A model generated the notes under the pieces. It saw only the letters and a program-made list of their open reading frames with translations, was not told the origin of the DNA and made no database searches. Of a stretch of 50,685 bases of DNA, positions 5,378 through 31,970 are shown piece by piece; positions within the stretch are counted from its first letter, which is position 1, and each line of letters opens with the position of its first letter. A program made the position numbers and the translations under genes. Source of the stretch: Bdellovibrionota bacterium (GTDB lineage: Bacteria > Bdellovibrionota_C > UBA2361 > JBGSMV01); the NCBI GenBank assembly GCA_041739995.1, contig JBGSMV010000020.1, forward strand, positions 1-50,685, read 5' to 3'.

Positions 5378-5423
5378 AGTTGTGCTTTATTTGAGTGGTC
5401 TCTTCGACCAGAGAGTTTGTAGT

Positions 5424-5448
5424 TTGAGTTGAGTTGAGTTGAGTTGAG
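5424..5448 (+). repeat. (TTGAG)5 simple sequence repeat directly upstream of lspA
   Basis: ttgagttgagttgagttgagttgag followed by gtgag. Confidence 0.9.
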
Positions 5449-6042: not shown

Positions 6043-6265
6043 AAATCTTTAAGAAGGCCCCATTCGGTGCCCTATTGGATTCGAAAAGCTGTTTTGCGAT
6101 GGGCGGCTCTGTACTAGCATGGCGCCCAGAAAGGGCTCTACGCCGAACCGTGGAAGTTCGTTTTATGCCGCCTCACTGGAAACAGGGTGTCGCACGGCTG
6201 AAATTTGAGCTTTTTTTAAGGGCTGCCAGTTCGGAAGTTTTTCCCAGGGTAATTCGCGAACATAT

Positions 6266-6601
6266 ATGCAAACTAGCTACCTCCCAAACCCTCGTTTTTT
6301 AAAAGCTCGTTGCTGGGCTCTTCGACTTGGACTTGTCGCTCTCGTTACGAGTGCTTGCGGGTGTTCGAGTGCTTCGAGCGATGCTTCTCCTGATCCCGAG
6401 GAACAACAAGTGATTTTTGAGACCTCGGCTGGTGAGATTGTATTGGACCACGAAGTTAAGGTGAATACGGACGAGAAGCTTGCCGCGGAAAATCGCCGCA
6501 AAAAGGTGCAGCGGGAGCGGGCGCGTGAGGTCAGAGAAATAGAAGACGCAGAGCGGCAGATTTTACACGATCAATTACTGCAGGAATACAAACCTAATTA
6601 A
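6266..6601 (+). CDS. Hypothetical lipoprotein with a charged coiled-coil C-terminus
   Basis: Hydrophobic stretch LGLVALVTSACGC (lipobox-like) followed by a charged helical tail. Confidence 0.55.
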   Translation: MQTSYLPNPRFLKARCWALRLGLVALVTSACGCSSASSDASPDPEEQQVIFETSAGEIVLDHEVKVNTDEKLAAENRRKKVQRERAREVREIEDAERQILHDQLLQEYKPN

Positions 6602-6706
6602 CCGGCCTAATTAACCGGCCTGATTAAGTGACCTGATTGAGTGGTATGCGATTAGGAGGACGAGCTGTGGATACAAGAGCTGTGAGTATAAGAACTGTGG
6701 AAACAA
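6593..6706. repeat. 13-bp (x4, decaying) and 15-bp (x3) tandem repeats at a gene junction
   Basis: cctaattaaccgg x2, cctgattaagtga, cctgattgagtgg; gagctgtggatacaa / gagctgtgagtataa / gaactgtggaaacaa. Confidence 0.8.
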
Positions 6707-6711
6707 GAAGC

Positions 6712-7707
6712 ATGATACGTGGAATTTTAGTTTGTTGGTGTGTATTGAGCTTAGGCGCATGCGCTTGGGTTCAGGAGCAAACCGGTGCGGGTGAAACCAC
6801 GACCGTGTCAGCTGCAACTGGCGGCGCGATCGGAGCTGGGTTAGGGGCGATCGTGGGAAGTCAAACCGGAGACGCGGGAGCAGGTTTGGTGATTGGCGGA
6901 TTGGCAGGAACCGCGGCAGGCGCTGCGATCGGCAATGTTCTTGAAGGCCAAGAAGAAGCCATTCAGACCCAGGAAGAGGCGATTGAGCGACAAGAGCGCG
7001 TGATTCGCGCTCAGAGCGAAGAACTACAGGAGCTTCGTCGAGGCCGAACAGATCTTGCAGGTGCCGATGTCAGGGGCGATAGAAGTTCTGGATATGAGAT
7101 ATCCCGAGTCCCGCAAGCTCGCTTTAGTGATAGCGGGGGAGTCTCTCAGTCGGGAATGGTGACCCAGCGAGATTTCGGTTCGCAGCGCGATATCTCTCAG
7201 CGCGACGCAGGAATGGCGGGTCGAGATGTGATGCCACGCGCCGGGTCGCCAGATGCGAGAGCTGCATATGTACCGCAGCCACTTACTGGCAGAGATGTTG
7301 GTGCTCCTGATTCTGCAACGAATGCTCGCCTTAAGATGGCCGAAGAAAGCCTAACGGAACCTTCACCACGGCAGGCAGAGTTCCCCTCAGCTCAAGCAAT
7401 CAACAGTGATTCAGTCAGCGACTGCGTGCAGGCCGAAGGTGAGTTTCGAACAGCGCTGCGATCAGAAGAAGCGCCTGAGCAGCTTTTCCACTTACGGCGA
7501 GCGCTTCGTTTGTGTCCTGAGCGCGCCGAGTTTCATAATGCGCTTGGTGAAGTTTACGTAAAACTTAGTCGGGACAGTGATGCAACCTTCGAGTTCGGCG
7601 AGGCGCTTCGCATTGAGCCATCGAATACGACCGCGCGTGCCAATCTGCAGGAACTTCAGGCCAAGTCGACTGGAGCCGTTGATCAGCTCGCAGCGCAGCG
7701 CTATTGA
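6712..7707 (+). CDS. Glycine-zipper lipoprotein with coiled coil and C-terminal TPR
   Basis: LGAC lipobox; GGAIGAGLGAIVGSQTG glycine zipper; TPR-like LRRALRLCPERAEFHNALGEVYVKL. ATG 6712 chosen because upstream codons are tandem-repeat DNA. Confidence 0.8.
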   Translation: MIRGILVCWCVLSLGACAWVQEQTGAGETTTVSAATGGAIGAGLGAIVGSQTGDAGAGLVIGGLAGTAAGAAIGNVLEGQEEAIQTQEEAIERQERVIRAQSEELQELRRGRTDLAGADVRGDRSSGYEISRVPQARFSDSGGVSQSGMVTQRDFGSQRDISQRDAGMAGRDVMPRAGSPDARAAYVPQPLTGRDVGAPDSATNARLKMAEESLTEPSPRQAEFPSAQAINSDSVSDCVQAEGEFRTALRSEEAPEQLFHLRRALRLCPERAEFHNALGEVYVKLSRDSDATFEFGEALRIEPSNTTARANLQELQAKSTGAVDQLAAQRY

Positions 7708-7897
7708 TTCCTTCGTGCGAGGATAGGGTGCAGAGAAAAGGTCCTGTGCGGCCGGCCGATTTTTTTAGCTCCGACTGGTGCCCTAAGCCAAGCCGTGAGA
7801 TCGCTTAGCTGGGCGGCGTCTTACCTGAGCAGGGTTTAACGATGAAGCGTTGTGCGTGCGCCCCAGGGTCTGGTTCGCAAAGGAACAAAAGGTGCAT

Positions 7898-16963: not shown

Positions 16964-17047
16964 CTATCCAGAGGACGAGGTCCTTCGCCATTAGTGCCTC
17001 GCAGTGTTTTTGCTGCTCAACGGTCAGGATTTTTTGGAATTTTACTT

Positions 17048-17380
17048 ATGCGGCTTCGATTGCTGAATGGACCATCTGAGGGGAAGGTTTTCGCCCTATC
17101 GCCAGGAAGTAACTTGATTGGCCGTTGGGACTCCGACGGAGGCGCATTTCCTGAAATCGATCTTGAGCAAGAGGATGTAGAAGCGAAGATCTCACGCAAA
17201 CATGCGGTGATATACGTCCAAGGGGACTCCGTTACCATCGAGGATGTGGGAAGTTTAAACGGCACATTCGTGAACAAAGTCACAAAGAGCGTTGCAGGAA
17301 AGAAGATACCGCTCTCTGTTGGCGATGAAGTGAACATTGGAGCGTTGGTATTCAAGTTTGAACTTGAAACGAGTTCCTAA
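17048..17380 (+). CDS. Single FHA-domain protein
   Basis: LIGRWD, ISRKHA, EDVGSLNGTFVN: the canonical pThr-binding residues are present. Confidence 0.9.
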   Translation: MRLRLLNGPSEGKVFALSPGSNLIGRWDSDGGAFPEIDLEQEDVEAKISRKHAVIYVQGDSVTIEDVGSLNGTFVNKVTKSVAGKKIPLSVGDEVNIGALVFKFELETSS

Positions 17381-17502: not shown

Positions 17503-17862
17503 CTAGGTCAGTAGATCTTCAATGTGTTTTACCAGAACTGCTGGCTTGCAAGGCTTGGTGAGTACCAAATTACAGCCTGCGTCGGTAGCTTCCTTGTGAA
17601 CTTCTGGATCATCGAGCGCCGTGAAGGCTACCACGGGAACGGTGATACCCTTGGCGCGGATGTGTCGCACGGTTTCTTGCCCGTTCATTTTGGGCATCAT
17701 CAGGTCTACTAGCACTGCATCAGGTTTCTCTTCTTCGATGCATTCGAGAGCCGAAAGACCGTCCGCGCGGCGCACCACTTCGAAGCCTTTGTCTTCAAAG
17801 AGGAAATCTACAATGTCGAGTGCGGTAACATCATCGTCGATAATGAGAATTTTCCTGGACAC
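17503..17862 (-). CDS. Single-domain response regulator (CheY-like receiver)
   Basis: ILIIDDD, VDLMMPKMNG (phospho-Asp), FTA, LTKP; GGAGG RBS before GTG. Confidence 0.93.
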   Translation of the reverse strand: MSRKILIIDDDVTALDIVDFLFEDKGFEVVRRADGLSALECIEEEKPDAVLVDLMMPKMNGQETVRHIRAKGITVPVVAFTALDDPEVHKEATDAGCNLVLTKPCKPAVLVKHIEDLLT

Positions 17863-18249: not shown

Positions 18250-19602
18250 ATGTTTGCGCTTGAAGTTAGTTTCCAAGATGGCGTCTCGCAGCCCGAGATG
18301 ATCTTCATTCGACGCCCCCAAGGGGTGATCGGCTCCTCTGACTATGCGCATGTTGTTATTGAAGATCTTAAGGCGCTGGGCTGTCAGCTCCGACTGGTTC
18401 GTGATCTCGGACGAAAGTTTAAGTGCAAACCCTTGGCGAATGTTGAAGGAGCCGCTCTCCCGACTGCGTTTGAGGGAACCTACGATGGGCATGCGGACTT
18501 GGATCTTGGATCGGTCAAGCTGCATGTGACCACTCTCGATTTTGATTTGCTTCTTCGCGAGAGTGAGCCACCCGATCGCGCCGGTGTGCGTGTGCTTCGT
18601 CAATCTTGCGCGTTGCCCGGTCCGATGTTTCCCGCAGTGCTTGTGCGCGGTTCTCCGCCGATGGTTGTTTCGTTTGTCCCTGATCAACCAATTTATGTGG
18701 GCAGATCAAAGCAGTGCGCCCTTCGACTCGACAACGCTGATATTTCCGCTAAGCATGCGCGACTGGGATATGAAGCGGGCGAGTTCTGGATAGAAGATCT
18801 GGGTTCGACCAACGGCACGTTCGTTAATCATCAACAAATTTCAGGCCGAATGAACGTTGCGCCCGCGACAGCGATTATTCTTGGACGCGAAGTGACCCTG
18901 GTGGGGGTTACCTCACAGGATCAGCTCGATCAGGCAGCCAATGCGGGAGCGGAATTGAGCGCACGAGCGCCCGCTTCTGAGAAGCGCTACCCCGTGCTTG
19001 TCTCGGTGTCAGAAGTTGCCAGACCCGCAAGAGTCGCATTGTCCCCCGGAGTTTCGGTGGTGGTAGGGCGCGATCCTGGATGTGACATGTGGCTCGGTGC
19101 CCCGCACGTCTCTCGCCGACACTGTGTAGTCTCCATGAGCAAAACCGGAACGCTGCAAGTGCAAGACTCAAGCACGAACGGTACCGGGCATGAGGAGGGT
19201 GTGCTCAAACGTGGTGAGGTCATGGCAATCACCGGTGCTCCTCGAGTCTTCGATTTTGGCGGAGGGGTCACTTTGGCGATATGCTTTAGTGAGCAACAAG
19301 AGCGTGAGTTCTCTGGTGCCAGCGGCAGTTTGTTTACGTTTCGTCCGCCACCGGAAGGTCCGAGAGGACAAGCTTCCGCAGAGGTGCCGGGGCAACGACA
19401 GACGCCGGGCTCAATGGCGTTGTCGATGGCGCGAAGTTCTGCACACGTGCCCGCCCAAAAGGACCAAGGATTTACGGAGCAGCTTTTAGACTATTACCGT
19501 GCGCTTTCGCCAACGGGGCGAGTAATACTTACGTTACTATTTGTTCTGCTTGCGGTGTTGAGTGGAGTACTTTTAAGCCTGGTGTGGGGAATGATTCGCT
19601 AA
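18250..19602 (+). CDS. Tandem FHA-domain protein with a C-terminal membrane anchor (SctD-cytoplasmic-like position)
   Basis: FHA1 VGRSKQC...ISAKHA...DLGSTNGTFVN; FHA2 VGRDPGC...VSRRHC...SSTNGT; possible degenerate N-terminal FHA; TM helix at the extreme C-terminus. Confidence 0.85.
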   Translation: MFALEVSFQDGVSQPEMIFIRRPQGVIGSSDYAHVVIEDLKALGCQLRLVRDLGRKFKCKPLANVEGAALPTAFEGTYDGHADLDLGSVKLHVTTLDFDLLLRESEPPDRAGVRVLRQSCALPGPMFPAVLVRGSPPMVVSFVPDQPIYVGRSKQCALRLDNADISAKHARLGYEAGEFWIEDLGSTNGTFVNHQQISGRMNVAPATAIILGREVTLVGVTSQDQLDQAANAGAELSARAPASEKRYPVLVSVSEVARPARVALSPGVSVVVGRDPGCDMWLGAPHVSRRHCVVSMSKTGTLQVQDSSTNGTGHEEGVLKRGEVMAITGAPRVFDFGGGVTLAICFSEQQEREFSGASGSLFTFRPPPEGPRGQASAEVPGQRQTPGSMALSMARSSAHVPAQKDQGFTEQLLDYYRALSPTGRVILTLLFVLLAVLSGVLLSLVWGMIR

Positions 19603-19718: not shown

Positions 19719-21014
19719 ATGTCTACAGATAGCACAGAGTTGGCGTTTGTTCGTTGTCCTTCTTGTCGGAGTCTTGTTCCCGCGGTCTCGACGCGCTGCC
19801 GTATGTGCGGTGAGACACTAGATCCTTCACAACAAAAACCGGAAGAGGGGTCAGGCGAATCTGCAAAGAGCGGACGTGTTCGCCAGAGAACCACCGCAAC
19901 CTCAAGCAGTGACTTGTCTGCTGCCGCTGGGCTCATTCGGCAGGAAATGGAGGGAACGCCCAAAGAGGCATTAAAAGTCAGTGCGGAGTCAGACGAGGAA
20001 GGCCTTCCTGAGCAATCGTCAGAAGGCCCGGCGGGCGCTGCCAAGCCTGAAGATACTAGTGCGCTGAGCGATGAAGATCCACTGAGTGCTTATATTCAAG
20101 AGGTAGATCTCGACGTGGAGGCACCGGCACCTAAGGGTTCCTCCAATGGTAGTGCGCACGCGGAGGCGGCTGTAGGTGCTGCGTCGACTGGGGCAGAGAG
20201 TTCCGGATCAACTGCTTCATCTTCTTCGGAGGGTAGCAAGCAGAGAGTGATTGTCGAGAGCGGATCGCGCAGAAACAAGCCTTCTGGGCTTTCATTCGGC
20301 GGTTCAAAACGAAGGGAAGATGTGCCTGAAGCTTCTGCGCGCGAGGAAGAGTGGAAGCCGGTTGGAGACCGTCCACGCCCCGCTAAGGAGCAGCAACCAG
20401 CTCGCGCGGACGATCGACGCGGCGGGGGCAATGATCGTCGGGAGAAGACGGACGATCGTCGAACGGCGCCACGTAGCCAGGAAAGAGGCCAGGAAAGACA
20501 GCAGGAGAGAAATCAAGAGAGAAGTCAGGAGCCTACAAGTCGACAGGAGCGCGCTATGGAACGCAATCAGGGGGAAAGAGGATCGGCCGAGCGAAATGAG
20601 AGACCACGTGATGGTGGGCGCAGCGAGTCGGGCCGTCGCTCAGACTCAGTAGAGTTTACTCAGCCGGGTACCGGAAAGTTGGTTGGATGGCTTGTAAACT
20701 ACTCTGATCCTAAAGGCGTTGCTGCTGAGTTACGTGAGGGACGGTTTTTTGTTTCTGGAACGAGTCTTAAACCTACTGACTTCGTGTTGAGTGACCCAAC
20801 AGTCTCAACTCCGCATGCGATGGTCGCTGCCGGAGCTCATGAGGGTTTGAGGGTGCAGGATCTCATGAGTGATCGTGGAGTCTGGGTGAAGCGTCGCTCG
20901 CATGAGAGCTTCCAACGGGTAAATGACGCGGTGAAGGTTGACCATGGGGATTGGCTGCGTTTTGGCGAAGTTGAATTTCTCGTGTGTCTAGTTGGCGCGG
21001 GAGCGGCTAAGTAA
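19719..21014 (+). CDS. Zinc-ribbon, disordered charged linker, degenerate FHA protein
   Basis: CPSC...CRMC; S/E/R/Q-rich middle; C-terminal LVGWLV...LSDPTVSTPHA...QDLMSDRGVWV...HGDWLRFGEV. Confidence 0.8.
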   Translation: MSTDSTELAFVRCPSCRSLVPAVSTRCRMCGETLDPSQQKPEEGSGESAKSGRVRQRTTATSSSDLSAAAGLIRQEMEGTPKEALKVSAESDEEGLPEQSSEGPAGAAKPEDTSALSDEDPLSAYIQEVDLDVEAPAPKGSSNGSAHAEAAVGAASTGAESSGSTASSSSEGSKQRVIVESGSRRNKPSGLSFGGSKRREDVPEASAREEEWKPVGDRPRPAKEQQPARADDRRGGGNDRREKTDDRRTAPRSQERGQERQQERNQERSQEPTSRQERAMERNQGERGSAERNERPRDGGRSESGRRSDSVEFTQPGTGKLVGWLVNYSDPKGVAAELREGRFFVSGTSLKPTDFVLSDPTVSTPHAMVAAGAHEGLRVQDLMSDRGVWVKRRSHESFQRVNDAVKVDHGDWLRFGEVEFLVCLVGAGAAK

Positions 21015-21038: not shown

Positions 21039-21953
21039 ATGGAGCGATTCAGGGTTTGGCGTTTGTTCGCCGTGGTCGTGTTAAGTTGCTGCTGCCTGAC
21101 AGGGTGCGGCGACGCGACCTTGCGCGATAGCCTCACCCAGGAACAAGCTAACGAGATCGTCGCTGCTTTGGTGGAGCGTGGAGTCCACGGTGTAGTTGAG
21201 CGTGAGACCGGGGGACGAGGGAAATATCGCGTCGGAGTTAAGCGCGGCAATTACTCTGAAGCAGTTTCGATTGTCCATGAACTGAAACTTCCTTCTGAAC
21301 CCCGTACTTCTTTCGCTGAGTTGATTGCACCGCGGGGATTGATGCCCGATCCGCGTGAAGTTGAGGCGCTAAGACTGGATCGCGCCATTGCGGCGGAAGT
21401 CGAGGAGGCATTACAAAGCGACCCATCAGTGGCTTCAGTTCGCGTGGTTGTGCGCCTTAACTCGGTCCTCTCAGCGAACTCAGAGAATTCAAATGGCACT
21501 GGTGCTGCGGTACTACTGCGGCTTCGAGACGGATCAAGTCTCAATAAAGAATCTCTGAAGACGATTCTTAAACAGACTTTGCCTGGCATTGAGGAAAGTC
21601 GCATCGTCTTAGAAGTCTTTCACGAAGCTGCCAAGAGCGTGGTGTCCAACGGGACCGAAGGGGTGGCTCGAATCGCGGGAGGACAGCTGCGCAAGGTGCC
21701 CCTGACTGAGTTTTTATGGCTTTGGCGCGTTCCTGAGGATGAATACAATAGTCTTGCTGGCTGGCTCATGCTGGGGATTATTGGAGTATTCGTACTTGGG
21801 ATCTCGCTGGGGTCCTTGCTGACATCAGCTCGCATTGCAGCGCGTGAGCCGAGTGCTGGAGTGAAGGGTTCTACTGCACGAGCACTTGGCAGCAGATCGG
21901 AGCGGAGCCGAAAAGAGCTTCCGGAAGCGCCTAAGGATGTAGGAGGCAATTAA
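21039..21953 (+). CDS. sctJ: T3SS inner-membrane ring lipoprotein (SctJ/YscJ family)
   Basis: LTGC lipobox; LTQEQANEIVAALVERG; LP...SFAELIAPRGLMP...AEVEEALQSDPSVASVRVVV; AVLLR; one C-terminal TM. Size and lipobox fit SctJ rather than FliF. Confidence 0.85.
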   Translation: MERFRVWRLFAVVVLSCCCLTGCGDATLRDSLTQEQANEIVAALVERGVHGVVERETGGRGKYRVGVKRGNYSEAVSIVHELKLPSEPRTSFAELIAPRGLMPDPREVEALRLDRAIAAEVEEALQSDPSVASVRVVVRLNSVLSANSENSNGTGAAVLLRLRDGSSLNKESLKTILKQTLPGIEESRIVLEVFHEAAKSVVSNGTEGVARIAGGQLRKVPLTEFLWLWRVPEDEYNSLAGWLMLGIIGVFVLGISLGSLLTSARIAAREPSAGVKGSTARALGSRSERSRKELPEAPKDVGGN

Positions 21954-22178
21954 GTGGTAGACACGCAACGATTTAGAAGTCTTAGTGCAGAGCACAGAGC
22001 GCTCGTCGCAGTGGCGGTACTGCTTGATGGTCGCGAAGCTGGAATGTATCTTGAGAATGATGCGGTCAATGGTGCGGGCCTAAAGCGAGCCGCTCTTGAT
22101 TTGGCGGGAGTCACTCCTGAGCTGCGTATGCCACTTGTGGGGACTTTGCTGCGTGATGCGCTTGAGGAGAAAGCGTGA
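21954..22178 (+). CDS. Small helical protein at the SctK position
   Basis: 74 aa, abuts sctJ and overlaps the next gene (GTGA); GGAGG RBS; function inferred from position only. Confidence 0.55.
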   Translation: MVDTQRFRSLSAEHRALVAVAVLLDGREAGMYLENDAVNGAGLKRAALDLAGVTPELRMPLVGTLLRDALEEKA

Positions 22179-22495
22179 GTGAGGCTTCAGGGGATCGGGA
22201 ATCCCTTGAGCGAGAATTTGCTCAGGTGATGAGGGAGTTAGAGCGGCGCGAGTATCAGCTGGCGCAGCTCGAGAAGAATTTAGGGGAATCTGAAGGAGTG
22301 CTCCGAGGGGTTGACCAGGAACACATGATACGGGTCGGGGATGTTATTGCATTGCAGCAGGCGGAAGTTCGTCGCAAGAGTGTGACGAAGGACATTGCTC
22401 AGTTTACCCGCAAGCTAGAAGAAGCGCGCGAAGATGTGCGTAGAGCACGTGAGAGGCGCGACGAGGTAGAAGCAGAACTTAAAGCCTTGCCATAG
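22175..22495 (+). CDS. Coiled-coil protein, SctO/FliJ-like
   Basis: Charged heptad-rich 106-aa sequence located just before sctQ. Confidence 0.55.
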   Translation: MSEASGDRESLEREFAQVMRELERREYQLAQLEKNLGESEGVLRGVDQEHMIRVGDVIALQQAEVRRKSVTKDIAQFTRKLEEAREDVRRARERRDEVEAELKALP

Positions 22496-22519: not shown

Positions 22520-23575
22520 GTGCAGGAAGGCGGAGATTCATCTGGGGAGCAGTCGTCGGGGGGGCAATCTTCCTCTGACGGTCTTATACCCTGGGACCCG
22601 CGCAGGTCTCTGCGGAAGTTAGACCCTCACGAGGTGCGACTTTCGAGAGGATTCCTGCGTTGTAGACCAGAGAAATGGTTTCCTGCATTTCCGGCTCATT
22701 GGCTACCACTTGCCCATTCGCTGGGTATCGATTTTCGTCTTACCGAAGCAAAACCAGGCTTGGCGCTGCCTAAAGGACTAGCGACCGCCTTCGCGTGTAG
22801 TGTTGATGACGAACCGCTAGGCATTTTCCTTGATGATGTTGCCACTAACGTGGTGTTGGAAGCACTCATTCCAGGCGGATCTCCTCAGGCCAATCGGGTA
22901 GTGGGAGAATATCTAGCGCGCAGGCTTTTGGTCAGCCTCGAGTCATCATGGAGCGGTCCTGAGTCTTCAGTCGTTCGCTTCGAAAGTGAACGCTCTCCTT
23001 TCGACATCGACCCGCAGGGAGTCGTGAAATTATCCTTTGAGATTCAGCGTAATCCAGCGTCCGTGTGGTTGGCGCTCGGTAAGGGACTGGTCGATCGGCT
23101 TGATAGTTTGTGGCGCAGACAGGTGCGATCTGTCTCGCGTTTAGCCGAAAGTGAAGGTGATGTGCATCTCGAACTGGCTCAGCTGGCGGTGCCGCCGGCC
23201 ATGCTGGTTGATTACCTCAAGCCCGGTTCAGTGATAGATTTGGAAGTGCCTGCATCAGATCAGGTAGTGATACGTTTTGCAGGGAAGCCGTTTCTTCCTG
23301 GTCGTTTAGGCGACATTCAGGGCAGGATTGGCGTTGAAGTGCTTTCTGGGCCAGTTCCCCCATCTTCGATTCCAGAGGGAACTACGCGACTCTCTGTGGC
23401 CAGTGCGATTTTTAAAATGGAGGGCACCCAAATGGCAGAGCTCTCCCAGCCTGGGGCAGCCTGGGACACGGGCGTGAGCCTTGGCGATGTGGTCGCAGTC
23501 GTAATCAACGGCGAGAAGGTAGCCGACGCCAGACTGTGCTTGTTCGAAGGCCGGCTCGCCATCAGCGTTCTTTAG
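22520..23575 (+). CDS. sctQ: Sorting platform / C-ring protein with two SpoA domains (SctQ; FliM/FliN-like)
   Basis: SpoA1 LKPGSVIDL...VVIRFAGKPFLPGRLGDIQGRIGVEV; SpoA2 LSQPGAAWDTG...VVINGEKVADARLCLFEGRLAISV. Confidence 0.78.
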   Translation: MQEGGDSSGEQSSGGQSSSDGLIPWDPRRSLRKLDPHEVRLSRGFLRCRPEKWFPAFPAHWLPLAHSLGIDFRLTEAKPGLALPKGLATAFACSVDDEPLGIFLDDVATNVVLEALIPGGSPQANRVVGEYLARRLLVSLESSWSGPESSVVRFESERSPFDIDPQGVVKLSFEIQRNPASVWLALGKGLVDRLDSLWRRQVRSVSRLAESEGDVHLELAQLAVPPAMLVDYLKPGSVIDLEVPASDQVVIRFAGKPFLPGRLGDIQGRIGVEVLSGPVPPSSIPEGTTRLSVASAIFKMEGTQMAELSQPGAAWDTGVSLGDVVAVVINGEKVADARLCLFEGRLAISVL

Positions 23576-23776: not shown

Positions 23777-24430
23777 GTGGGGCTTGGCCATATAGTCTCA
23801 GGTATGGAGACCTTACCGGCCTTTATCGGTGGCCTATTTCTAATTCTATTACTGACTTCCTTTACCAAGGTTTTCACCGTCCTCAGTATCGTGCGCGTTG
23901 GCGTTGGGCTCGAGGGCCTCGGCATGGGGGCAATCGTGGCCGGATTCTCACTGTTGGTGACGTTCGTCGTTATGCAACCACAGCTAGAACCTATTGGAGG
24001 ACTGCAAGCATTGCTTGAGGGCAAGCTTCGAGCAGAAGACCGGGTAGTCACCACCCACCTTAAGCCCTTCTTAGAGAGAAACGCTGATGCTTCGGTGCGA
24101 GAGCGTCTTGCGAAGCTGCGCACTTCAAACGGTGTGAAACCAAAGGACGAGCCGAAATCGGACGGTGCTGCTGTTGAGAATCCACAGGACGACGATCTTT
24201 CGTTGGTCACACTTGCGTTCATGCTTACCGAGCTGCGTGAAGCCTTTGAGCTTGGGCTATTACTGCTGCTTCCTTTTGTGGTCATTGATTTGCTGGTGGT
24301 GAACATCATCACCGCGCTTGGGGTCACTGATTTTCCTGCACGCATTGCCAGCCTTCCGCTGAAACTTTTGCTTTTCGTAAGCATAGACGGGTGGACGCTC
24401 ATCACAGAGAAACTGCTGGGTGGTTACTGA
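23777..24430 (+). CDS. sctR: Export gate subunit SctR/FliP, divergent
   Basis: TSFTKVFTVLSIVR, AFMLTELREAFELG, LPFVVIDLLV, SLPLKLLLFVSIDGW; no FliP-type signal peptide; alternative start ATG 23804. Confidence 0.88.
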   Translation: MGLGHIVSGMETLPAFIGGLFLILLLTSFTKVFTVLSIVRVGVGLEGLGMGAIVAGFSLLVTFVVMQPQLEPIGGLQALLEGKLRAEDRVVTTHLKPFLERNADASVRERLAKLRTSNGVKPKDEPKSDGAAVENPQDDDLSLVTLAFMLTELREAFELGLLLLLPFVVIDLLVVNIITALGVTDFPARIASLPLKLLLFVSIDGWTLITEKLLGGY

Positions 24431-24446
24431 GGGGAGGCATGACGCT

Positions 24447-24695
24447 ATGGCATCGGCTGAATTGATAGAAGCATTCATTGATGCAATTCGAACCTTGGTG
24501 TTGCTGGGTTTGCCGCTGGTGTTGGCCTGTGTGGTGGGCGGCTCGCTGATGGGAATTATCCAATCAGCCACGTCAATCCATGAACCAGTGCTTGGATATG
24601 CCGCACGTCTTGGAGCAGTGGCGCTTGTTTTTTACCTGATGCTGCCGAGCTTTACTCAAAGCGTGCTCAGTCTGGCTGAGCGGGTATTCCGCTAG
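24447..24695 (+). CDS. sctS: Export gate subunit SctS/FliQ, divergent
   Basis: Two TM helices around MGIIQSATSIHEPVLGY (aligns to FQAxTQIQEQTLxF); follows sctR; GGAGG RBS. Confidence 0.8.
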   Translation: MASAELIEAFIDAIRTLVLLGLPLVLACVVGGSLMGIIQSATSIHEPVLGYAARLGAVALVFYLMLPSFTQSVLSLAERVFR

Positions 24696-24725: not shown

Positions 24726-25316
24726 TTGTTAATTGCCTGCCTTATAGTCCTGCTTCTTTTCTGGCCACTTGGCCTTGGGGCAATAGTGCTGCCGTGGATG
24801 GGGTTGTGTTGGGCACTGTGGGAATTTGCGCCTGAGCTTGTGCCAGAGCATGGCGAACCGGTGTGGTTGATGTTGTTCGTCGCCTCTGTTCCGCTTTGTG
24901 CCGGTATTGCAGCAATTCTTGTCGAAAGAATTTCAGGGTTGGTGGAAGGAATTCGCTCGCTTCGGCAAGTCGCCGCGCTTTCGAGCCTCGTGCTGCTCGC
25001 TTCTCATGCCGTTTGGAGTGATTTTCTTTTCCGCGGCATGATGCATACCGGTACGAACATAAGTCCTGCCGCCTCAGGAGCGTTGTTGCTGGCATTAGGA
25101 AATGCAGTGGTGTTCTGCAGTGTGCTTAGTGCGCTTGCAGTGACCGTTACCCAGTATGTGGTGCGCTGGGGGGTAGTGTGTGGGTTTCGGATGTCGGCGA
25201 TGAAGCTTACCTTACCATGGACTGCCATCACGTTGCTTGGGGCGGTGGTGATTGTGACTTTTTTGGGGCAGCAACTTTCGGCATTTTTTTGGCAAGAGTT
25301 TAGCGCGGTGAATTAA
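24726..25316 (+). CDS. Polytopic membrane protein at the SctT/FliR position, highly divergent
   Basis: 5-6 hydrophobic segments between sctS and sctU; shorter than typical SctT; motif similarity weak. Confidence 0.5.
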   Translation: MLIACLIVLLLFWPLGLGAIVLPWMGLCWALWEFAPELVPEHGEPVWLMLFVASVPLCAGIAAILVERISGLVEGIRSLRQVAALSSLVLLASHAVWSDFLFRGMMHTGTNISPAASGALLLALGNAVVFCSVLSALAVTVTQYVVRWGVVCGFRMSAMKLTLPWTAITLLGAVVIVTFLGQQLSAFFWQEFSAVN

Positions 25317-25455: not shown

Positions 25456-25479
25456 AATTAGCAGAGATTGAGGCAAACT

Positions 25480-26157
25480 ATGGTAGGCGGAGACGAAACC
25501 GAGTGGCCAACAGCTCGAAAGCTTGAGCACCTTCGTTCGCAAGGAATTGTACCGCACTCGCGTTCTGCGGCGTTTTTGATGGTAGCGGCCGCTGCGGCTC
25601 TCACCTTGTGGGGTTTAACGGGCGAACTTTCAGCTTGGTGGGGCGAGTATCGCGGATTGATTTCAACCAGTGCAGAGTCAGGTGCGCAGTCGCTCGGTGC
25701 CTCTCGAGTTGAGACGGCGCTAGCGCCTTTCTTGGGCTTTTTTCTGCTTCCAGCCATAGCTGGTGCGCTTGGAGTACTGGTCCTTGGTATGTTTCAGAGT
25801 AGATTTTTGGTGCGCCTCGGTGCTTGTGGTTTCGACCTTTCACGGGTGATGTCGGGAAAGCAATTGCGGGGGTTTTCTGGGCGAAGTCTTGGAATGCTTC
25901 TGCGAGGGTACGCGGTGATTGCCGTGGTAGCGCTCTTAGGCTTCATGTTCTGGCCGCTCAGCACCTCGTTGACGGCGGTGGACCGCAGTGGCATCTCGCG
26001 CATTCCAGAGTTGGTACTTAGGGTGGCGGCGTTTGGGTTTGGGGTCATTGGAACCGCAATAGCGGTGATAGCTCTGGTGTGGAGCCATATTGAGTTTCGA
26101 CGTACTCATCGCATGACTCGGGCTGAGCTTCTCAGTGAAGCGCAGGATGATGGGTAG
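25480..26157 (+). CDS. sctU: SctU/FlhB membrane domain only (no NPTH cytoplasmic domain)
   Basis: ETEWPTARKLEHLRSQGIVPHS (the KTExPTxKKL...GQV motif), four TM segments, ends EFRRTHRMTRAELLSEAQDDG-stop. Confidence 0.8.
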   Translation: MVGGDETEWPTARKLEHLRSQGIVPHSRSAAFLMVAAAAALTLWGLTGELSAWWGEYRGLISTSAESGAQSLGASRVETALAPFLGFFLLPAIAGALGVLVLGMFQSRFLVRLGACGFDLSRVMSGKQLRGFSGRSLGMLLRGYAVIAVVALLGFMFWPLSTSLTAVDRSGISRIPELVLRVAAFGFGVIGTAIAVIALVWSHIEFRRTHRMTRAELLSEAQDDG

Positions 26158-26350: not shown

Positions 26351-27013
26351 TCACTGATTCGGGTTGAAGCGGTTGAGATACGCCGTGAGATCGGAAATCG
26401 CATCAGAAGTGAAGGCCCCGATATAGAGATTCATTTCTGGAACGTCAGAGAAAGCTACCTCAATCTCCGAATAGGTCTTATCGCGAGGTTCGGCTTGAAT
26501 TGATCCGTTGTGGCACCCCGCACATGATGAACCAAACAATATCAGACCCTCATCCTCGTTTCCTACTTGTCCATTTGGAATGCCAAAACATGAAGTATTT
26601 CGGTTCATGTCGTAACAGCCTTGCGACTGAGGAGTCGGAGTGGCCGTCGGAAGGGTAGGAGTAGGAGTTGGCGGTGGGCCATTGGTACAAGAACTGGCTT
26701 CCCTACGTTGAGTCTTTTTTATCTTTGCAAGCTTCTTGTCCACCTTAGCCTGATCTGCATCGGAGGACGCGAGCCGTTTATCTTTTTTGAGAGCGCGTAT
26801 CTGAGCCGCACGGCTAGTAAATACCCCAGGCGTGCTGAGCTTAGTGACTCCAGGAATCCATTTTCCGCCTACCATGCCGCACGAAGTAGTACCGGACTGA
26901 AAGATATCAGAGAGCGGTAGCGTCACCTTCTTAGGACGCGTAGCCGCAGATGCGGTTGCTATAGAGAAAATCACGCTGCACAGAGTCAATGCGGTCAGAA
27001 ATTTAGTCTTCAT
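26351..27013 (-). CDS. Secreted monoheme c-type cytochrome with an N-terminal Lys-rich module and PT linker
   Basis: Signal peptide ending ASA; CAGCH heme motif; candidate distal Met in VPEM; DLTAYL C-terminal helix. Confidence 0.78.
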   Translation of the reverse strand: MKTKFLTALTLCSVIFSIATASAATRPKKVTLPLSDIFQSGTTSCGMVGGKWIPGVTKLSTPGVFTSRAAQIRALKKDKRLASSDADQAKVDKKLAKIKKTQRREASSCTNGPPPTPTPTLPTATPTPQSQGCYDMNRNTSCFGIPNGQVGNEDEGLILFGSSCAGCHNGSIQAEPRDKTYSEIEVAFSDVPEMNLYIGAFTSDAISDLTAYLNRFNPNQ

Positions 27014-27031
27014 GCCGTAGTATTCCCTTCA

Positions 27032-28387
27032 CTATGCCGGCCGAATGATACCAAGTGGAGTGCGGGTGAAGCCCGGGAAAACGGCAGAGGGATTCAAGGA
27101 GAGGCCCTGAATGATGTCGCAGTACACATCTCGAATTTTTATCTGTGCATCGATGCCGTTTTGAGGCCTTTGAAGCTCGGCGACCGTAAAGTCTTGGCCA
27201 TACATTCCGCCTGCAACAGCTCCTCCAAGCAAAAACACTATTGAGGCATCAGCATGGTCAAGCCCCTTGGTCACGTTCTCATAATTCGTTCTTCCGAATT
27301 CAGAATTTATCACAATGATCATGTCGCTCCATATGCCCGCATTCTCGCAGTTCAGACGAAAGGCATTCAGGGCCAAATTAAGGTCTCGAAGCCGAGCAGA
27401 CATCCCCATTCGTGCGTTTGGATTCTGGCCCTGTGGGTCGGAATTCTCGTGGACGTCGTATCCACCTGTCTCGGCGTATCCGAATTGAGTGGGGAGCTGT
27501 CGAAAGCTGATATAGATATCCCTCAGTTGTCGGCCAATACCCGTGTTAGGAAACTGAGCTGTGAGTAACGAACATGTACCGTTATTCGAATTGTAGGTCC
27601 CGCATCCCGTCGTGAAAGCGGTTCCAACGGCGGCCACGGTTTGATTTAGCTGCGCCCAATTCTGTTTGATAGCCGCCGGTAAAGCGCCAGTGCCGTTTGC
27701 GGATGAGATGATTGATTGAGCGGTGGCCATTCTGAAGCCATACTCGCCGGTCGAGGTGGTTCCCAGCTCGGCTCGGTACCCAAAGTCAGCCAAGGAATTG
27801 AGAGCCGTTGGTCTAAATTGCGCACTCTGAACCGTGGCGCCGGTGGCTATTCCGCCACCGGTTAGATCTATTACACGGTAACTATCTGAGATGGCATTAG
27901 CCTCCATGATTTTTTGAATCCAGCCCGTATCATCAACGGTGTTTCCGCTATCTACCCCAGTTTGGTGGTCCTTTTGAGCCTCCTCATGTGAGCCGGTGTT
28001 GTTCGTAACTATGCCGCCCTTAAGTAAGATCGCACACTCACTAGGCGAACGGTTAAAGAGCGTTTGGAACTCGGTCATCTGATCATGCAGGGTGTAGTTT
28101 GAACCGTTGAGGGACAGGCGGGTGAAGGGCGCCCCCACGTTGTTCAAGAGCGGCGCTCCAATGGTCGGCCTATTAGTCAAGAGTTGACTCATCACGCTCC
28201 CGAATCCCGTTGGCTGAACGGGGATAAACATGTCACAGCCACCATTTAAAAAGACGTTCACCACCTTTCGCCCTGCGATCGGCGCGGCACTCGCGTCTCT
28301 TAAGAAGAGGCGTGACATCCCGAGGGTTGATGCGGTCGCCCCGGCACTTACTATCTTAAGAAATCCTCGTCTACTTACCTTGCTCAT
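27032..28387 (-). CDS. DUF1501 family protein, Tat-exported
   Basis: SRRGFLK twin-arginine signal; FLNGGCD, GSHEEA, GGYDVH, SEFGRT, GLDH, LGGAVAGGMYG. Confidence 0.85.
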   Translation of the reverse strand: MSKVSRRGFLKIVSAGATASTLGMSRLFLRDASAAPIAGRKVVNVFLNGGCDMFIPVQPTGFGSVMSQLLTNRPTIGAPLLNNVGAPFTRLSLNGSNYTLHDQMTEFQTLFNRSPSECAILLKGGIVTNNTGSHEEAQKDHQTGVDSGNTVDDTGWIQKIMEANAISDSYRVIDLTGGGIATGATVQSAQFRPTALNSLADFGYRAELGTTSTGEYGFRMATAQSIISSANGTGALPAAIKQNWAQLNQTVAAVGTAFTTGCGTYNSNNGTCSLLTAQFPNTGIGRQLRDIYISFRQLPTQFGYAETGGYDVHENSDPQGQNPNARMGMSARLRDLNLALNAFRLNCENAGIWSDMIIVINSEFGRTNYENVTKGLDHADASIVFLLGGAVAGGMYGQDFTVAELQRPQNGIDAQIKIRDVYCDIIQGLSLNPSAVFPGFTRTPLGIIRPA

Positions 28388-28426
28388 ACCCGCCTCTCCT
28401 ATTTAGGATTGTCTTTTCCCTCAAAT

Positions 28427-30556
28427 CTATTTGCTCAGAAAATGAGGGTGCATCGCCATAAACACATACAGATAGCGCGCTTTATTATTTTGATGATTGG
28501 TGTTTGAAAAGCCATTTGCTTCGCTTGGAATTCCGTTCAGTAGGTTGTCGTACTTGGCTCTCGTGTACTGGATGCCATTATTGGGATTATAGTTGTAATC
28601 CATGTAGTAGACCAACTGATCAACGTCGTCGTTACTGAGCGTCACCCCAAGTTTGTTAGCGACGAATTGAATCACTTCTGCTGCGGTGTAGTCGCCCTCT
28701 GGGAGCACGCGCTGCGGCATCCATCCGAGGCCATTTCCGTCCACTAGCCGAGCGAGTTCGGTGCTACCAAGGAGATACGCCGTAGTTAAGTTCGCAGTCT
28801 CCATAAGTGTGTAAGGCCGAGACCAGTTCGCATCAGGGAAGAAGAACACTCCTTCTGAGGGAAGGGTCGTGGTATATCCCATTCGAGCCACACTCCCCTG
28901 AGTGTAGGCTACGACGAATTCCTGGTCGGGAGTTCCTTCACGCTGATTGATATTGATTCCTACCTCCAGAGTCTGTGAACCGATGTCATGGCGTGCCATC
29001 TCCAAAGTACGCGCAAGCTCAACCGCAACCTGGAACGAGTTCTTCGCTACGGTATTCTTATAGTTGCCATGATAGAACGCCTTAGATAGCAAGAGTGTTC
29101 GAAGGCTCGCGTCCAAATCGTAGTTATTCGCTACCAGCACTTGCGAAAAGGTTTTGATCAGCTCCTGAGGCGGAGCGGCGGTGACATACCAGCGCAGGAT
29201 TTCTTTGGAGATAAAGAGCGGCGCTCCGGGATGTTTCTCGAGGATGCCGAACACCACCTCTGAATCGGAAGACGAGCTAAACTGGTGGGGCTCTCCCTCG
29301 AAGATTGGAAGAATCGCTGGATCATGATCTTCGGGGCTAAATACTCCCCGCCATCTTTGGATGCCTCCTCCGTCGGTAAAGGGGGACACTCTCCATCCGC
29401 TGATGTTGCGCGCGATACGGTAGATATCACCAAGCGTACGGTTTCCCCCATTTCGGAATTCCACATAGTTGTCGACCAACACTCCCGTGGCTTCATCAAA
29501 TCTCTGGGTTCCGACAGTAAAGAGCTCTTGGAGTTCGCGGGCGTAGTTCTCATTTACATTTCCCAAAACATTCTGGTTGTTGCTGAGCCACAGCAGCATC
29601 ATAGGAGAGCGCTGTGCGCGCACCAGTTGAACCGCAAACTTTGACTTTCCCGGAAACGCTTGGGCAAAATCTGTGGGAAGTGGAAGATTGTAGGCGATTT
29701 CGCCAAGCAAATTGAAATAATCCCACCACAGCACGAACTGTGGGTTTCCAGCAGTCGAATTGCTTAATACGTCGTGCCCAACCGTCCAAAGCCCGAGCAA
29801 GAAGTGCCGGAGATTCTCTCGGAAGGGGTTTCTGGTGTTGATGGCGAGCTCCAGGGCAGCTTGTCGAAATCCTCGAAAACGAAAGCTGTCTCTCGTTTGA
29901 GTCAGGAGGTCACCAAGACCCGACCCGCCTCCGACACCATTTGAAGCATTTTTTCTGTCCTCAATGCGATCCGCCAAGGTCGCATCCTCAGCTTTGACCA
30001 GCATCAACTCATCCACTGCAGTTGCAAGCCCGGTGGAGAGTGCTTTATCAACAACCGCTTGTTCACCCGAACTTCGGCCGTAAGCTGCCTTCTCGAGGAG
30101 ATACCGCACCGTTTCCTCAGATACCGGACCGGAATAGGCCTCCATGGAGAACTCGTCAGGTATTACCGTGGGAGTAGGAGTAGGCTGTATTGGCCCGGCG
30201 GTGCAGGTTTGCTTCGCATTAGATTGGTAACGCTTGAGGGACTTCTTTTCCTTGTTGAGCTTCTTAATCAGCTTTGCATCATCCTCCGCGTCGAGGCCCT
30301 TAAGCTGCTTTAGAATCTCCTTAAGTCGGACGCCTACTTTCTGAAACTTGTTTCTCTTGGCGCGGATAGGGATCCACTTGTTCTTTACAAGGGCGCAGGT
30401 GATCGGGTTTCCATCGGTCCCGGTTCCCTCAAACATATTTTCTGGACTGGGGGAGAAAAGCGATCGAGTCTTGGGTCCATTGGCTGCATGGGCAGAGTCT
30501 CCTAAGAGTAGGGAGAATGAGAAAATTGTAACCGCTATAATCGTTGAATACTTCAT
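28427..30556 (-). CDS. DUF1800 family protein, secreted, with an N-terminal Lys-rich module
   Basis: Signal peptide ending AHA; SPMMLLWLSN...NENYARELQELFTVG; upstream of DUF1501 as is typical. Confidence 0.85.
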   Translation of the reverse strand: MKYSTIIAVTIFSFSLLLGDSAHAANGPKTRSLFSPSPENMFEGTGTDGNPITCALVKNKWIPIRAKRNKFQKVGVRLKEILKQLKGLDAEDDAKLIKKLNKEKKSLKRYQSNAKQTCTAGPIQPTPTPTVIPDEFSMEAYSGPVSEETVRYLLEKAAYGRSSGEQAVVDKALSTGLATAVDELMLVKAEDATLADRIEDRKNASNGVGGGSGLGDLLTQTRDSFRFRGFRQAALELAINTRNPFRENLRHFLLGLWTVGHDVLSNSTAGNPQFVLWWDYFNLLGEIAYNLPLPTDFAQAFPGKSKFAVQLVRAQRSPMMLLWLSNNQNVLGNVNENYARELQELFTVGTQRFDEATGVLVDNYVEFRNGGNRTLGDIYRIARNISGWRVSPFTDGGGIQRWRGVFSPEDHDPAILPIFEGEPHQFSSSSDSEVVFGILEKHPGAPLFISKEILRWYVTAAPPQELIKTFSQVLVANNYDLDASLRTLLLSKAFYHGNYKNTVAKNSFQVAVELARTLEMARHDIGSQTLEVGININQREGTPDQEFVVAYTQGSVARMGYTTTLPSEGVFFFPDANWSRPYTLMETANLTTAYLLGSTELARLVDGNGLGWMPQRVLPEGDYTAAEVIQFVANKLGVTLSNDDVDQLVYYMDYNYNPNNGIQYTRAKYDNLLNGIPSEANGFSNTNHQNNKARYLYVFMAMHPHFLSK

Positions 30557-31056
30557 AACAACCCTTTGAATCTGGTCTCCGAAGAGCCGCCTCCAGCGAA
30601 CTCTCGCCCCACCGGTGTGTTTTCTCTTCCTTGGGCACACGCTGCCCCTAGGCCTTCAGAGCAAGATCTGCACCAACACAACCGGTCCTGGTCTGCCTCG
30701 TGGTACCTAGGGAATAAGTCCTGTTGGATTCGTCCTCTAGGTACCTGTACACCCACGTCCCATTCCACCTCTTCGTCCCTTAAGGACAGGATAATGGAAC
30801 GTTACTACCCTCGTCGGTGCACTAGTGCGGGAATCCATTAGAACAAGCTGCGACTTTGAACTAAGGCACCCTCCACCGATTGGTATCGGTTCGATCTTCA
30901 AAACGGTAAAGCGTTTGAAGGTCCCTAAAATCCTAGAGTGGGTCAAAAGGTTGGGTGTGCCGGTGCCACTGAATCCGAACTCCTTTCAGGCCATTATCCC
31001 GGTTGCAGAGGGCAAAACTGAGCGATATCCAGGTGCCACACAATTCGCTAGACTTC

Positions 31057-31224: not shown

Positions 31225-31539
31225 ATGAAGAAGTCACTTGTCGCCCCCCCAGACCCCTTTGGACTTTCGCCACTTGCCCTGTTGCTTCCGGTAATCGGGC
31301 AAGTCGGCGGCCTCACGCCTCTTACCTCTTCTCTGTTTGCTCGATTTGAAAAGGTGCAGGCGCTTAAAACTGAAGTTAGTTCCGGTGCGGGCGCTGATTC
31401 AGCGCGAACAGCGTTTCGTCGGCTTGCAGCCGAGGAGGCAATGCTCAAAGAGGTTCTCGATTGGCTCGCGGTGAAACCAGAGCAGTCCGGTGTTCCCTCT
31501 GAAAAGGCGCAGTTAGCCGAAGGGGGATCTGATCAATGA
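31225..31539 (+). CDS. Hypothetical helical protein, coupled to the TPR gene
   Basis: 104 aa; ATGA overlap with 31536. Confidence 0.6.
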   Translation: MKKSLVAPPDPFGLSPLALLLPVIGQVGGLTPLTSSLFARFEKVQALKTEVSSGAGADSARTAFRRLAAEEAMLKEVLDWLAVKPEQSGVPSEKAQLAEGGSDQ

Positions 31540-31970
31540 AAGCAGCAAGGCCAAGGCTCAGTTCAGAAGTTCTTAAGCGCGGCTATTCGGATGAAGAGAT
31601 AGCGCATATTTATGAGCTCGCCAGATTCTCGATTGAGATTGGAGAGTTTCGGCGCGGCGAATTAATCGCCTCTGGGCTTGTTGAGGTAGCTCCAGAGTTT
31701 GCCCCAGCGTGGTTGTGTGTGGCGTTTGTGCACTTACACAATCGTGCCTATGACCAGGCTATCCAGGCGGCTCAGCACGCCCTTAAGGTGGACTCTGGCT
31801 CAGAAGCGGCACTGCTGTACCTTGTAAGTGGCTACCTGGGGGCTGAAGACTATAATTCAGCCGGCACACACTTAGGGGAGCTGGGTGAGCTGTTTGAAAG
31901 TGGGGGGCTTGATGACCCACATGCACTGCGATTCTACCGGGCGCTTTTAGCGCGCTATCAGAATCGATAG
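31536..31970 (+). CDS. TPR protein resembling SycD/LcrH-class (or SctY) T3SS chaperones
   Basis: GYSDEEIAHIYELA...GEFRRGELIASGLVEVAPEFAPAWL...YDQAIQAAQHALKVD, a three-TPR pattern. Confidence 0.65.
   Translation: MKAARPRLSSEVLKRGYSDEEIAHIYELARFSIEIGEFRRGELIASGLVEVAPEFAPAWLCVAFVHLHNRAYDQAIQAAQHALKVDSGSEAALLYLVSGYLGAEDYNSAGTHLGELGELFESGGLDDPHALRFYRALLARYQNR

Follow-up and report, generated by a model that had tools for sequence, protein, structure and literature searches.

The closest known system to the one described here is the Kil/T3SS* system of Myxococcus, in which a type III secretion system that lacks a needle (T3SS*) works together with the Tad-like Kil pilus in prey lysis by M. xanthus (PMC12075869, PMC12428579). 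According to a review, the co-occurrence of Kil and T3SS* is seemingly limited to the Cystobacterineae (PMC12075869/PMC12428579). A second point of reference is the 'Myxo' type of non-flagellar T3SS (NF-T3SS), whose early-branching loci have neither a secretin nor the needle protein SctF, and which has been argued to translocate proteins without contact-dependent injection (Abby and Rocha 2012, PMC3459982; the word 'Bdellovibrio' occurs nowhere in that article). Here we analyse a type III gene cluster in a stretch of 50,685 nucleotides from a Bdellovibrionota bacterium (assembly GCA_041739995.1, contig JBGSMV010000020.1; the whole stretch is called the window below), with emphasis on two subunits of its export gate, SctR (FliP family, 23777..24430, + strand) and SctS (FliQ family, 24420..24695, + strand). 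A first-pass annotation of the window, made from its sequence alone, had proposed that these subunits have lost the residues lining the channel while keeping the scaffold, and that the gate consequently no longer threads unfolded proteins in the usual way. We consider it rather probable that SctR and SctS, both intact and under selection, form part of a needle-less type III gate which is highly divergent, has its SctV encoded in a Tad operon and still conducts protein. The system to which the gate belongs is conserved in an order of uncultured, Bdellovibrionota-like bacteria.

Several general properties are shared with the described systems. Like T3SS*/Kil, the locus encodes a type III basal or export apparatus that lacks the secretin, the needle and the translocon; a link to a Tad-like pilus exists in both (functional in Myxococcus, by genetic evidence only here), and both systems belong to predatory delta-type bacteria. 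It resembles the 'Myxo' NF-T3SS in being an early-branching non-flagellar locus that lacks a secretin and SctF, but its SctR forms a distinct clade and the locus is more reduced. With the canonical FliPQR/SctRST gate (6f2d, 6s3l, 6r6b, 6pep, 7ah9) it shares the Pfam families, the predicted SctR fold, the scaffold motifs, the salt-bridge pair of SctS and the gene order R-S-T-U. In contrast to that gate, the Met loop of SctR reads V-T-D and its Q2 loop is rich in Gly, the protein in third position cannot be recognised as FliR/SctT, SctU has no C-terminal domain, and a FliO gene was not found in the cluster.

The predicted SctR protein is 217 amino acids long and matches PF00813 with 132 bits (cut-off 26.9), its residues 21-213 covering profile positions 10-191 of 191. 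An AlphaFold2 model with a predicted local distance difference test (pLDDT) score of 81 matches FliP chains with template-modelling (TM) scores of 0.62-0.74 and a Foldseek probability of 1.00; with FliP and SpaP chains taken together, the TM scores are 0.54-0.74 at the same probability. The protein thus has both the sequence profile and the fold of the FliP family, and the translation retains the scaffold motifs TSFTK, ELREAF, LPFVVID and LPLKLLLFVSIDGW. What it does not have is the Met-Met-Met loop (M-gasket or M-gate), which is a functional hallmark of FliP/SctR and not a criterion of homology. In place of GMMM, SctR has G182-V183-T184-D185 (24320-24331), in which V183-T184-D185 (24323-24331) is the M-loop equivalent. 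In place of GxQQxPPN, the Q2-loop equivalent G44-G51 (23906-23929) reads GLEGLGMG, a turn that aligns to G-L-Q-Q-x-P-S/P-N of solved FliP/SctR chains. The open reading frames (ORFs), translations and coordinates of these replacements are as first described.

One way in which the apparent loss could have been an artefact is that the missing residues lie nearby in a shifted register. When SctR is aligned with five solved FliP/SpaP sequences in HMMER, no gap interrupts the stretch from LPF..IDL via the loop to SLP.KL..FV..DGW, and V-T-D falls opposite M-M-M in Vibrio FliP, Pseudomonas FliP and Shigella SpaP, and opposite M-I-M in 12du. In the same alignments, E46-G47 stands opposite the Q-Q of the solved chains. 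In the model, L181-P187 and G44-G47 are each a loop between two helices. The gap-free alignments and the position of both loops in the model therefore exclude a shifted register, and the earlier observation that lumen-facing loops of SctR were replaced while the scaffold motifs were retained stands. The codons for GVTD are identical in contigs of four DNA sequencing runs, all of one study and possibly from the source sample itself.

Among approximately 2500 FliP homologs, Met is found at 99%, 87% and 99% of the three gasket positions (PMC8239009), so the SctR triplet is truly exceptional. Rare natural variants with polar M-loops do exist among FliP homologs (PMC8239009). In the literature that we searched on the M-gasket, Q-belt, R-plug and M-loop, natural Met-free gates in needle-less systems are not described. 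The Q-Q belt of SctR (Q2) is a different matter, as it is ancillary and less conserved in FliP (PMC7943601), and the Q2 loop of the flagellar FliP of the same genome is G-T-S-T-L-P-P-N. The concern that functional canonical systems commonly carry such substitutions is therefore justified for SctS (see below) and partly for Q2, and unjustified for the M-loop.

We observed further deviations from M-M-M outside the locus. The flagellar FliP of this genome (contig C60; locus L011, 3260-4027) has the gasket sequence S-M-I-T-L-P-P, with the triplet M-I-T, and all three FliP paralogs of this organism deviate from M-M-M. A second Bdellovibrionota clade has G-L-V-H-F, G-T-S-Q-L or G-M-P-Q-L in the gasket region. 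Further environmental SctR lineages without a Met gasket have, for example, G-L-S-S-T, G-L-T-S-T or G-L-Q-S-S, together with an A-P-E-A-P-S-G loop; one of these examples is named Kofleriaceae.

The replacements in SctR are conserved in related genomes. An intact ortholog, recognisable as the third, short FliP paralog, is present in at least 35 of 40 relatives of the order. We read the orthologs of 19 relatives, and of 16 more after weaker matches had been fetched, and all frames are open; there are no internal stops in the SctR matches of the 22 best relatives, and the frames of 16 further ones are open as well. In 34 of the 35 related genomes, Met is absent from positions 2 and 3 of the triplet, the sole exception being V-P-M in genome G007. 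Three of the 35 orthologs, all from genus g6, have a Q2 loop containing P-S and may represent an allied type. An alignment of 20 orthologs has 15 invariant columns.

A profile built from 20 SctR orthologs and searched against 1.84 billion representative sequences retrieved 4045 proteins at E<=1e-3, and 481 when the threshold was E<=1e-30. We counted motifs in the best 150 of the representatives at 50% identity, a set that includes a few canonical sequences at its bottom. The triplet contains no Met in 138 of these 150. Position 1 is most commonly V (63) or I (49), followed by M (12), L (10) and A (9); position 2 is T in 80 and Q in 17; and position 3 is Q in 95, N in 13 and S in 10. At the Q2 site, Q-Q occurs in only one of 145 of the best representatives, and a Gly-x-hydrophobic-Gly/Ser ('GFG'-type) turn in 103. 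The clade consensus is thus a [V/I]-T-Q triplet together with a Gly-rich GLxGxGFG turn. The first-pass annotation had left it to the orthologs to decide between a conserved replacement and the random variation expected of decay; they conserve the replacements, with a specific consensus in place of random residues. The conservation of a Met-free triplet across orthologs argues for selection and against decay, and the change in SctR represents a selected alternative gate.

A tree of 81 SctR rows, obtained by a quick search and rooted at the midpoint only, recovers the clade (25 rows) as monophyletic with a support of 100 by the Shimodaira-Hasegawa-like approximate likelihood ratio test (SH-aLRT). 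A long, fully supported branch divides it from the sequences of flagella, injectisomes and Myxococcota, and it is also distinct from the second non-flagellar paralog of the same genome. Two fully supported branches separate the SctR clade of the window from all Myxococcota rows. The Myxococcota proteins also differ in their motifs. Genomes of Corallococcus and Myxococcus have two SctR paralogs, with the triplets M-Q-T and M-H-M, and a genome of Anaeromyxobacteraceae has L-T-Q. Myxococcota SctR retain the Q-Q-x-P-P loop (GTQQAPPT), which is lost here, where Met is also entirely gone from the triplet; and Myxococcota SctS retains two belt Gln (QATTQLQESTL), unlike the SctS of the window. The triplets can be arranged as a graded series, from M-M-M in canonical gates, via M-H-M and M-Q-T in the Myxococcaceae genomes searched and L-T-Q in one genome of Anaeromyxobacteraceae, to V/I-T-Q here. 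The SctR triplet could thus serve as a molecular marker for the Kil/T3SS* model, and could flag Tad-coupled needle-less type III systems in metagenomes.

In comparison with SctR, the SctS stretch is only mildly unusual. The protein matches PF01313 with 45.2 bits (cut-off 25) and aligns to SpaQ and FliQ. The segment QSATSIHEPVL (24561-24593) places S52, H54 and P56 opposite Q41, Q43 and Q45 of SpaQ (numbering counted from the alignment); Gln43 is the residue named for the Q1 belt of the injectisome protein SpaQ (PMC7943601). The Q1-belt Gln of injectisome SctS are thus absent. They are also absent from solved flagellar FliQ chains, which read QAATSINEQTL (Vibrio), QAITSIQDQTL (12du) and QAATQINEMTL (Salmonella), and FliQ of Sphingomonadales has QTILSVSETSL in combination with a GMMM FliP. 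Because solved FliQ and Sphingomonadales FliQ lack those Gln, their loss in SctS is ordinary: the residues quoted in the first-pass annotation are correct, whereas its interpretation of them as the special loss of a Gln belt is weak, since solved flagellar FliQ already has S or N there. Within the clade, which has the SctS pattern Q-[SA]-A-T-[STA]-[IV]-x-[DE]-[P..]-[AV], Q is present at the three belt positions in 0, 5 and 1 of 20 members. E55 and R63 of SctS correspond to the salt-bridge pair E46 and K54 of FliQ, and a D/E and R/K pair is kept in all 20 members, with D at the position equivalent to FliQ 46 in 11 of them.

The gene context further characterises the locus. The type III genes of the window lie in a run on the same strand (+ in all of the following unless noted), with a response regulator on the opposite strand. 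In four loci of relatives (L056, L057, L060 and L137), we found the same order: two FHA proteins, SctJ, a small ORF, (SctO), SctQ, SctR, SctS, a protein of about 200 amino acids, a shortened SctU, a small ORF and a TPR protein. SctJ (21039..21953), a lipoprotein resembling those of the inner-membrane ring, matches PF01514 with 36.1 bits (cut-off 24.4), and its translation contains the lipobox-like LTGC. A SctQ-like protein (22520..23575) has a C-terminal FliN/SpoA domain (PF01052, 43.7 bits). Between these two lie a conserved ORF of 74 amino acids without a Pfam match (21954..22178), with a counterpart of 72-78 amino acids at the same place in all four loci, and a coiled-coil protein similar to SctO/FliJ (22175..22495), assigned by its position and a weak match to PF02050 (24.1 bits, E 4.5e-5, below the cut-off of 28.4).

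Upstream of SctJ, the cluster is headed by a small FHA-domain protein (16994..17380; PF00498, 52.6 bits), which is found at the same place in L057, followed by a single-domain response regulator (17503..17862, - strand; PF00072, 95 bits), a conserved neighbour also found in L056 and L057. The next gene (18250..19602) encodes a double-FHA protein resembling the cytoplasmic part of SctD (PF00498, 98 bits in two stretches; Yop-YscD_cpl, 62 bits), with orthologs in the four loci. In its translation, the single transmembrane helix is at the extreme C-terminus, so that the protein lacks a periplasmic ring domain that could make contact with a component of the outer membrane. A further protein with orthologs in relatives (19719..21014) begins with a motif resembling a Cys4 zinc ribbon, continues with a long region that is charged and disordered, and has an FHA domain (25.1 bits) at its C-terminus.

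Downstream of SctS, the position of SctT/FliR is occupied by a polytopic membrane protein of 196 amino acids (24726..25316) that matches no Pfam family, and for which homology to FliR is not demonstrable. Orthologs of 191-207 amino acids are present in 14 of 19 short loci and also in the four loci of relatives. In the window, PF01311 has no match at E<=1, none of 15 members of this ortholog group matches the FliR Pfam family (E<=10), an hhalign comparison with FliR gave a probability of 4%, and a hidden Markov model of the 15 orthologs did not match the FliR proteins of the genome itself. Foldseek found no fold at E<=0.001, with chains of the export apparatus only among weak rows (TM approximately 0.3), a wide VIA-align search returned only generic helical hairpins, and phmmer found only the ortholog from the same genus. 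The protein is fast-evolving and has no detectable similarity to FliR left, and a protein of approximately 200 amino acids is kept at this place across the order.

The SctU/FlhB gene (25468..26157) encodes only the membrane domain (PF01312, 65 bits, profile positions 2-220 of 335); the protein ends at 229 amino acids, and the autocleaving (NPTH) C-terminal switch domain is absent. It is likewise shortened, to 206-230 amino acids, in the four loci. In five relatives, sctU is directly followed by a small ORF and the TPR gene. In the window, three genes on the - strand (26351..30640), encoding a protein of 220 amino acids, a DUF1501 protein and a DUF1800 protein according to their Pfam matches, split the cluster in this genome. 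As sctU and the small ORF are adjacent in relatives, an insertion seems to have interrupted the cluster here. Beyond it lie the small ORF (31225..31539), encoding a conserved helical protein with 30-52% identity to five positional orthologs, 10 invariant columns and no Pfam match, and a TPR protein of approximately 145 amino acids, the size of a type III chaperone (31536..31970; TPR_19, E 2e-4, 22.1 bits, below the cut-off of 25), whose orthologs in the four loci have TPR matches. We considered the small ORF as a detached FlhB C-terminal domain and dropped this idea, as there is no Pfam match and no NPTH in the alignment; no profile comparison was made. A stand-alone gene for an FlhB C-terminal domain is present on contig C42 (L134, 9851-10132), and may or may not be a partner of this SctU.

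No SctV gene was found in the cluster. On contig C47 of the same genome, SctV is located directly 3' of tadC, in a block of TadC, SctV and a HEAT protein, and the same adjacency to tadC is found in relatives G005 and G013; this Tad-linked type of SctV is present in 35 of 40 relatives. In G005, which belongs to another family of the same order, a single same-strand array encodes Flp pilin, CpaB, CpaF, TadB, TadC, SctV and a kinase-like/HEAT protein, and continues into the core with two FHA proteins, SctJ, SctQ, SctR, SctS, the SctT-position protein, the membrane part of SctU, the small ORF and the TPR protein. The genome has three FliP paralogs (contigs C60, C74 and C55) and three FlhA paralogs (C36, C47 and C5), as do nearly all of the 40 relatives. 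Losses of individual sets could in principle have indicated which SctV belongs to which core. Our searches did not find flagellar-type FliP and FlhA in G022, G024 and G035, and all three genomes have kept both non-flagellar sets, so that these patterns do not discriminate; the pairing of SctV with the core therefore rests on the array of G005.

The needle and the outer-membrane part of an injectisome are not evident. In the genome, which is 91% complete, PF09392 (needle protein SctF) has no match at E<=1, a result that a very divergent needle could escape, and a dedicated secretin SctC was not found; the two secretins that the 91% complete genome does encode belong to a locus of the type II secretion system type and to a PilMNOQ locus, neither of which is near type III genes. 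Neither SctC nor SctF, two components of the injectisome (NF-T3SS in the definition of Abby and Rocha), was thus found.

Mutagenesis of Salmonella FliP provides rules by which the SctR triplet can be judged. Position 1 lies buried, and hydrophobic residues of medium size are the only ones tolerated there (PMC8239009). At positions 2 and 3, secretion and motility survive most changes except those to charged residues, Pro, Gly or Trp, while polar residues there weaken ion sealing and gating (PMC8239009). M-loops with a net charge no longer supported flagellar export, and natural polar M-loops accompany Asp at FliQ position 46 (PMC8239009). The clade motif, with V or I at position 1, fits these rules well, and we infer from them that a V/I-T-Q gate could still pass unfolded protein but that the canonical mechanism would give it only a poor seal. 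The passage of protein is also suggested by the components that have been kept: SctJ, SctQ, an SctO-like protein, a dedicated SctV, and a TPR protein of chaperone size with its small partner. For both reasons, namely that Salmonella FliP with polar residues in the second and third positions still secreted and that these export components are retained, we find no support, as far as the clade is concerned, for the proposal of the first-pass annotation that unfolded proteins are no longer threaded. Our results speak neither for nor against the nanotube, membrane-remodelling or signalling-scaffold roles that it also suggested.

On this basis, the hydrophobic Met gasket was replaced in the lineage by a buried, medium-sized hydrophobic residue (V/I) and two channel-exposed polar residues, T-Q in general and T-D here, and the Q-Q-x-P-P-N hairpin tip by the Gly-rich GLxGxGFG turn. 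The complex would then be a protein-conducting gate with a hydrophilic Gln/Thr constriction, sealed by something other than a Met gasket. It would probably handle few substrates at a low rate and, having no needle, may pass them on to the periplasm or the Tad machine, much as has been proposed for Kil and T3SS* of Myxococcus. The Met gasket is regarded as an almost universal means of sealing type III channels while export is fast. That a large clade in nature has polar residues in place of Met and yet is clearly under selection amounts to a natural experiment on the purpose of the gasket: either sealing is achieved otherwise, or it is dispensable where a gate has no needle and its exit is the periplasm. 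A variation on this proposal is that the ring of Gln/Thr (here Asp) forms a hydrophilic channel that is not tightly sealed for the fast export of unfolded protein, possibly binds cations or conducts ions, and, with its unrecognisable third subunit and without a switch domain, feeds or energises the Tad pilus. We regard this as doubtful; if true, it would mean a hybrid secretion machine with a different gating principle.

A number of observations weigh against a gate that still conducts protein by way of a Tad-linked SctV. The V-T-D of this particular genome has an unpaired negative charge, which we cannot explain given the effect of net charge on flagellar export (PMC8239009), and it is odd even within its own clade: D is found at position 3 in only 5 of the 150 best representatives, and in four of those a K or R at position 2 makes the pair neutral. 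If SctR assembles as five copies, as solved FliPQR complexes lead one to expect, the unpaired Asp would create a net negative ring, and this favours the view of the first-pass annotation, for this genome only. The R5S4T1 architecture and its plug are assumed, the SctT-position protein not being tied to FliR by sequence or fold, and SctU is without its switch domain. Genes for the ATPase and SctL were not found in the cluster, and the genome has only one non-flagellar pair of FliH-like protein and ATPase (contig C36) for two non-flagellar cores. By comparison, the M. xanthus cluster holds all sorting-platform components (PMC12075869), while here SctV is in a Tad operon and the cluster has no ATPase. 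The collinear Tad/type III array is verified in one relative only, G005; the Tad block and the core are 63 kb apart on one contig in G013, and on separate contigs in this genome. With respect to the parallel with Myxococcus, the SctR of the experimentally studied T3SS* may be either the M-Q-T or the M-H-M paralog. Finally, the stretch is in no RNA run listed, and is carried by four DNA contig runs of one study.

A first rival explanation is that the scaffold has been kept while translocation of unfolded protein has been lost, leaving an open or polar pore, or a platform for assembly or signalling that serves the Tad machine and the FHA/kinase module. All three constrictions of the injectisome gate are altered here (V-T-D at the M-gate, E-G at Q2, and S, H and P at Q1), and the charge in the M-loop is of the kind that abolished export in flagella (PMC8239009). 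The missing switch domain of SctU, the unrecognisable SctT-position protein and the lack of an ATPase in the cluster would be readily accommodated, as would the surroundings of the core, where four genes carry FHA domains and where a response regulator and, in relatives, a kinase-like protein are also encoded. However, the clade consensus V/I-T-Q is uncharged and of the kind that kept secretion in mutagenesis (PMC8239009), the parts of an export pathway are conserved (SctJ, SctO-like, SctQ, the dedicated SctV, and the TPR protein with its small partner), and T3SS* of Myxococcus, which belongs to a lineage with reduced SctR M-loops, is needed for prey lysis (PMC12075869). We therefore think a loss of translocation unlikely.

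Two further explanations were considered. The substitutions might be tolerated ones in an ordinary gate of type III or flagellar type, in view of the S and N at belt positions of solved flagellar FliQ, the Sphingomonadales FliQ with QTILSVSETSL beside a GMMM FliP, the ancillary and poorly conserved nature of Q2 in FliP (PMC7943601), and the M-I-T and G-T-S-T of the genome's own flagellar FliP. These precedents do not extend to the triplet, considering the frequency of Met among the roughly 2500 FliP homologs (PMC8239009), its absence from the triplet in 138 of 150 clade representatives, and the long, fully supported branch that separates the clade from flagellar, injectisome and Myxococcota SctR; nor is a system with no SctF match, no dedicated secretin and no SctU C-terminal domain an ordinary one. 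We thus judge this explanation very unlikely. As for a decaying remnant whose substitutions reflect pseudogene drift, the Pfam score of SctR is indeed the lowest of the three paralogs (132 vs 175 and 243 bits), and three foreign-looking genes interrupt the cluster in this genome. But the frames are open in the 22 best and 16 further relatives, the replacements follow a specific consensus, different families of the order share the arrangement of the genes, and the system is kept in G022, G024 and G035, where our searches found no flagellar-type FliP or FlhA. Decay is already contradicted by these conservation data, and is extremely improbable. An intact, selected gate that still conducts protein thus remains our preferred explanation.

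The genome's second non-flagellar gate, on contig C74, encodes FliO, FliP, FliQ, FliR and the membrane part of FlhB. It is similar to the gate of the window in being an order-wide paralog with a split or shortened FlhB and an FHA neighbour. It differs in having a recognisable FliO and FliR, an M-loop of M-T-M, a G-T-Q-H-T-P-S-G loop and the FliQ sequence QAATQIQEQTV. Its FlhB (L008, C74:40000-59999) is split into two genes (3181-3480 and 7019-7807), one for a membrane part of 262 amino acids and one for a C-terminal domain of 99 amino acids, with a GAF histidine kinase of 1176 amino acids between them. In the region 5542-12181 of L010 (C5:6000-25999), the third SctV of the genome (631 amino acids) is accompanied by a sigma factor, another SctJ-like gene, several ORFs of unknown family and a TPR protein; this SctV probably serves the C74-type core. 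The second pair of FliH-like protein and ATPase (L012, C36:12000-31999, 5395-7519, - strand) diverges from the flagellar genes flhB-flhA-flhF-flhG-fliA; its ATPase has no T3SS_ATPase_C match, and the true flagellar FliH, FliI and FliJ are encoded on contig C53.

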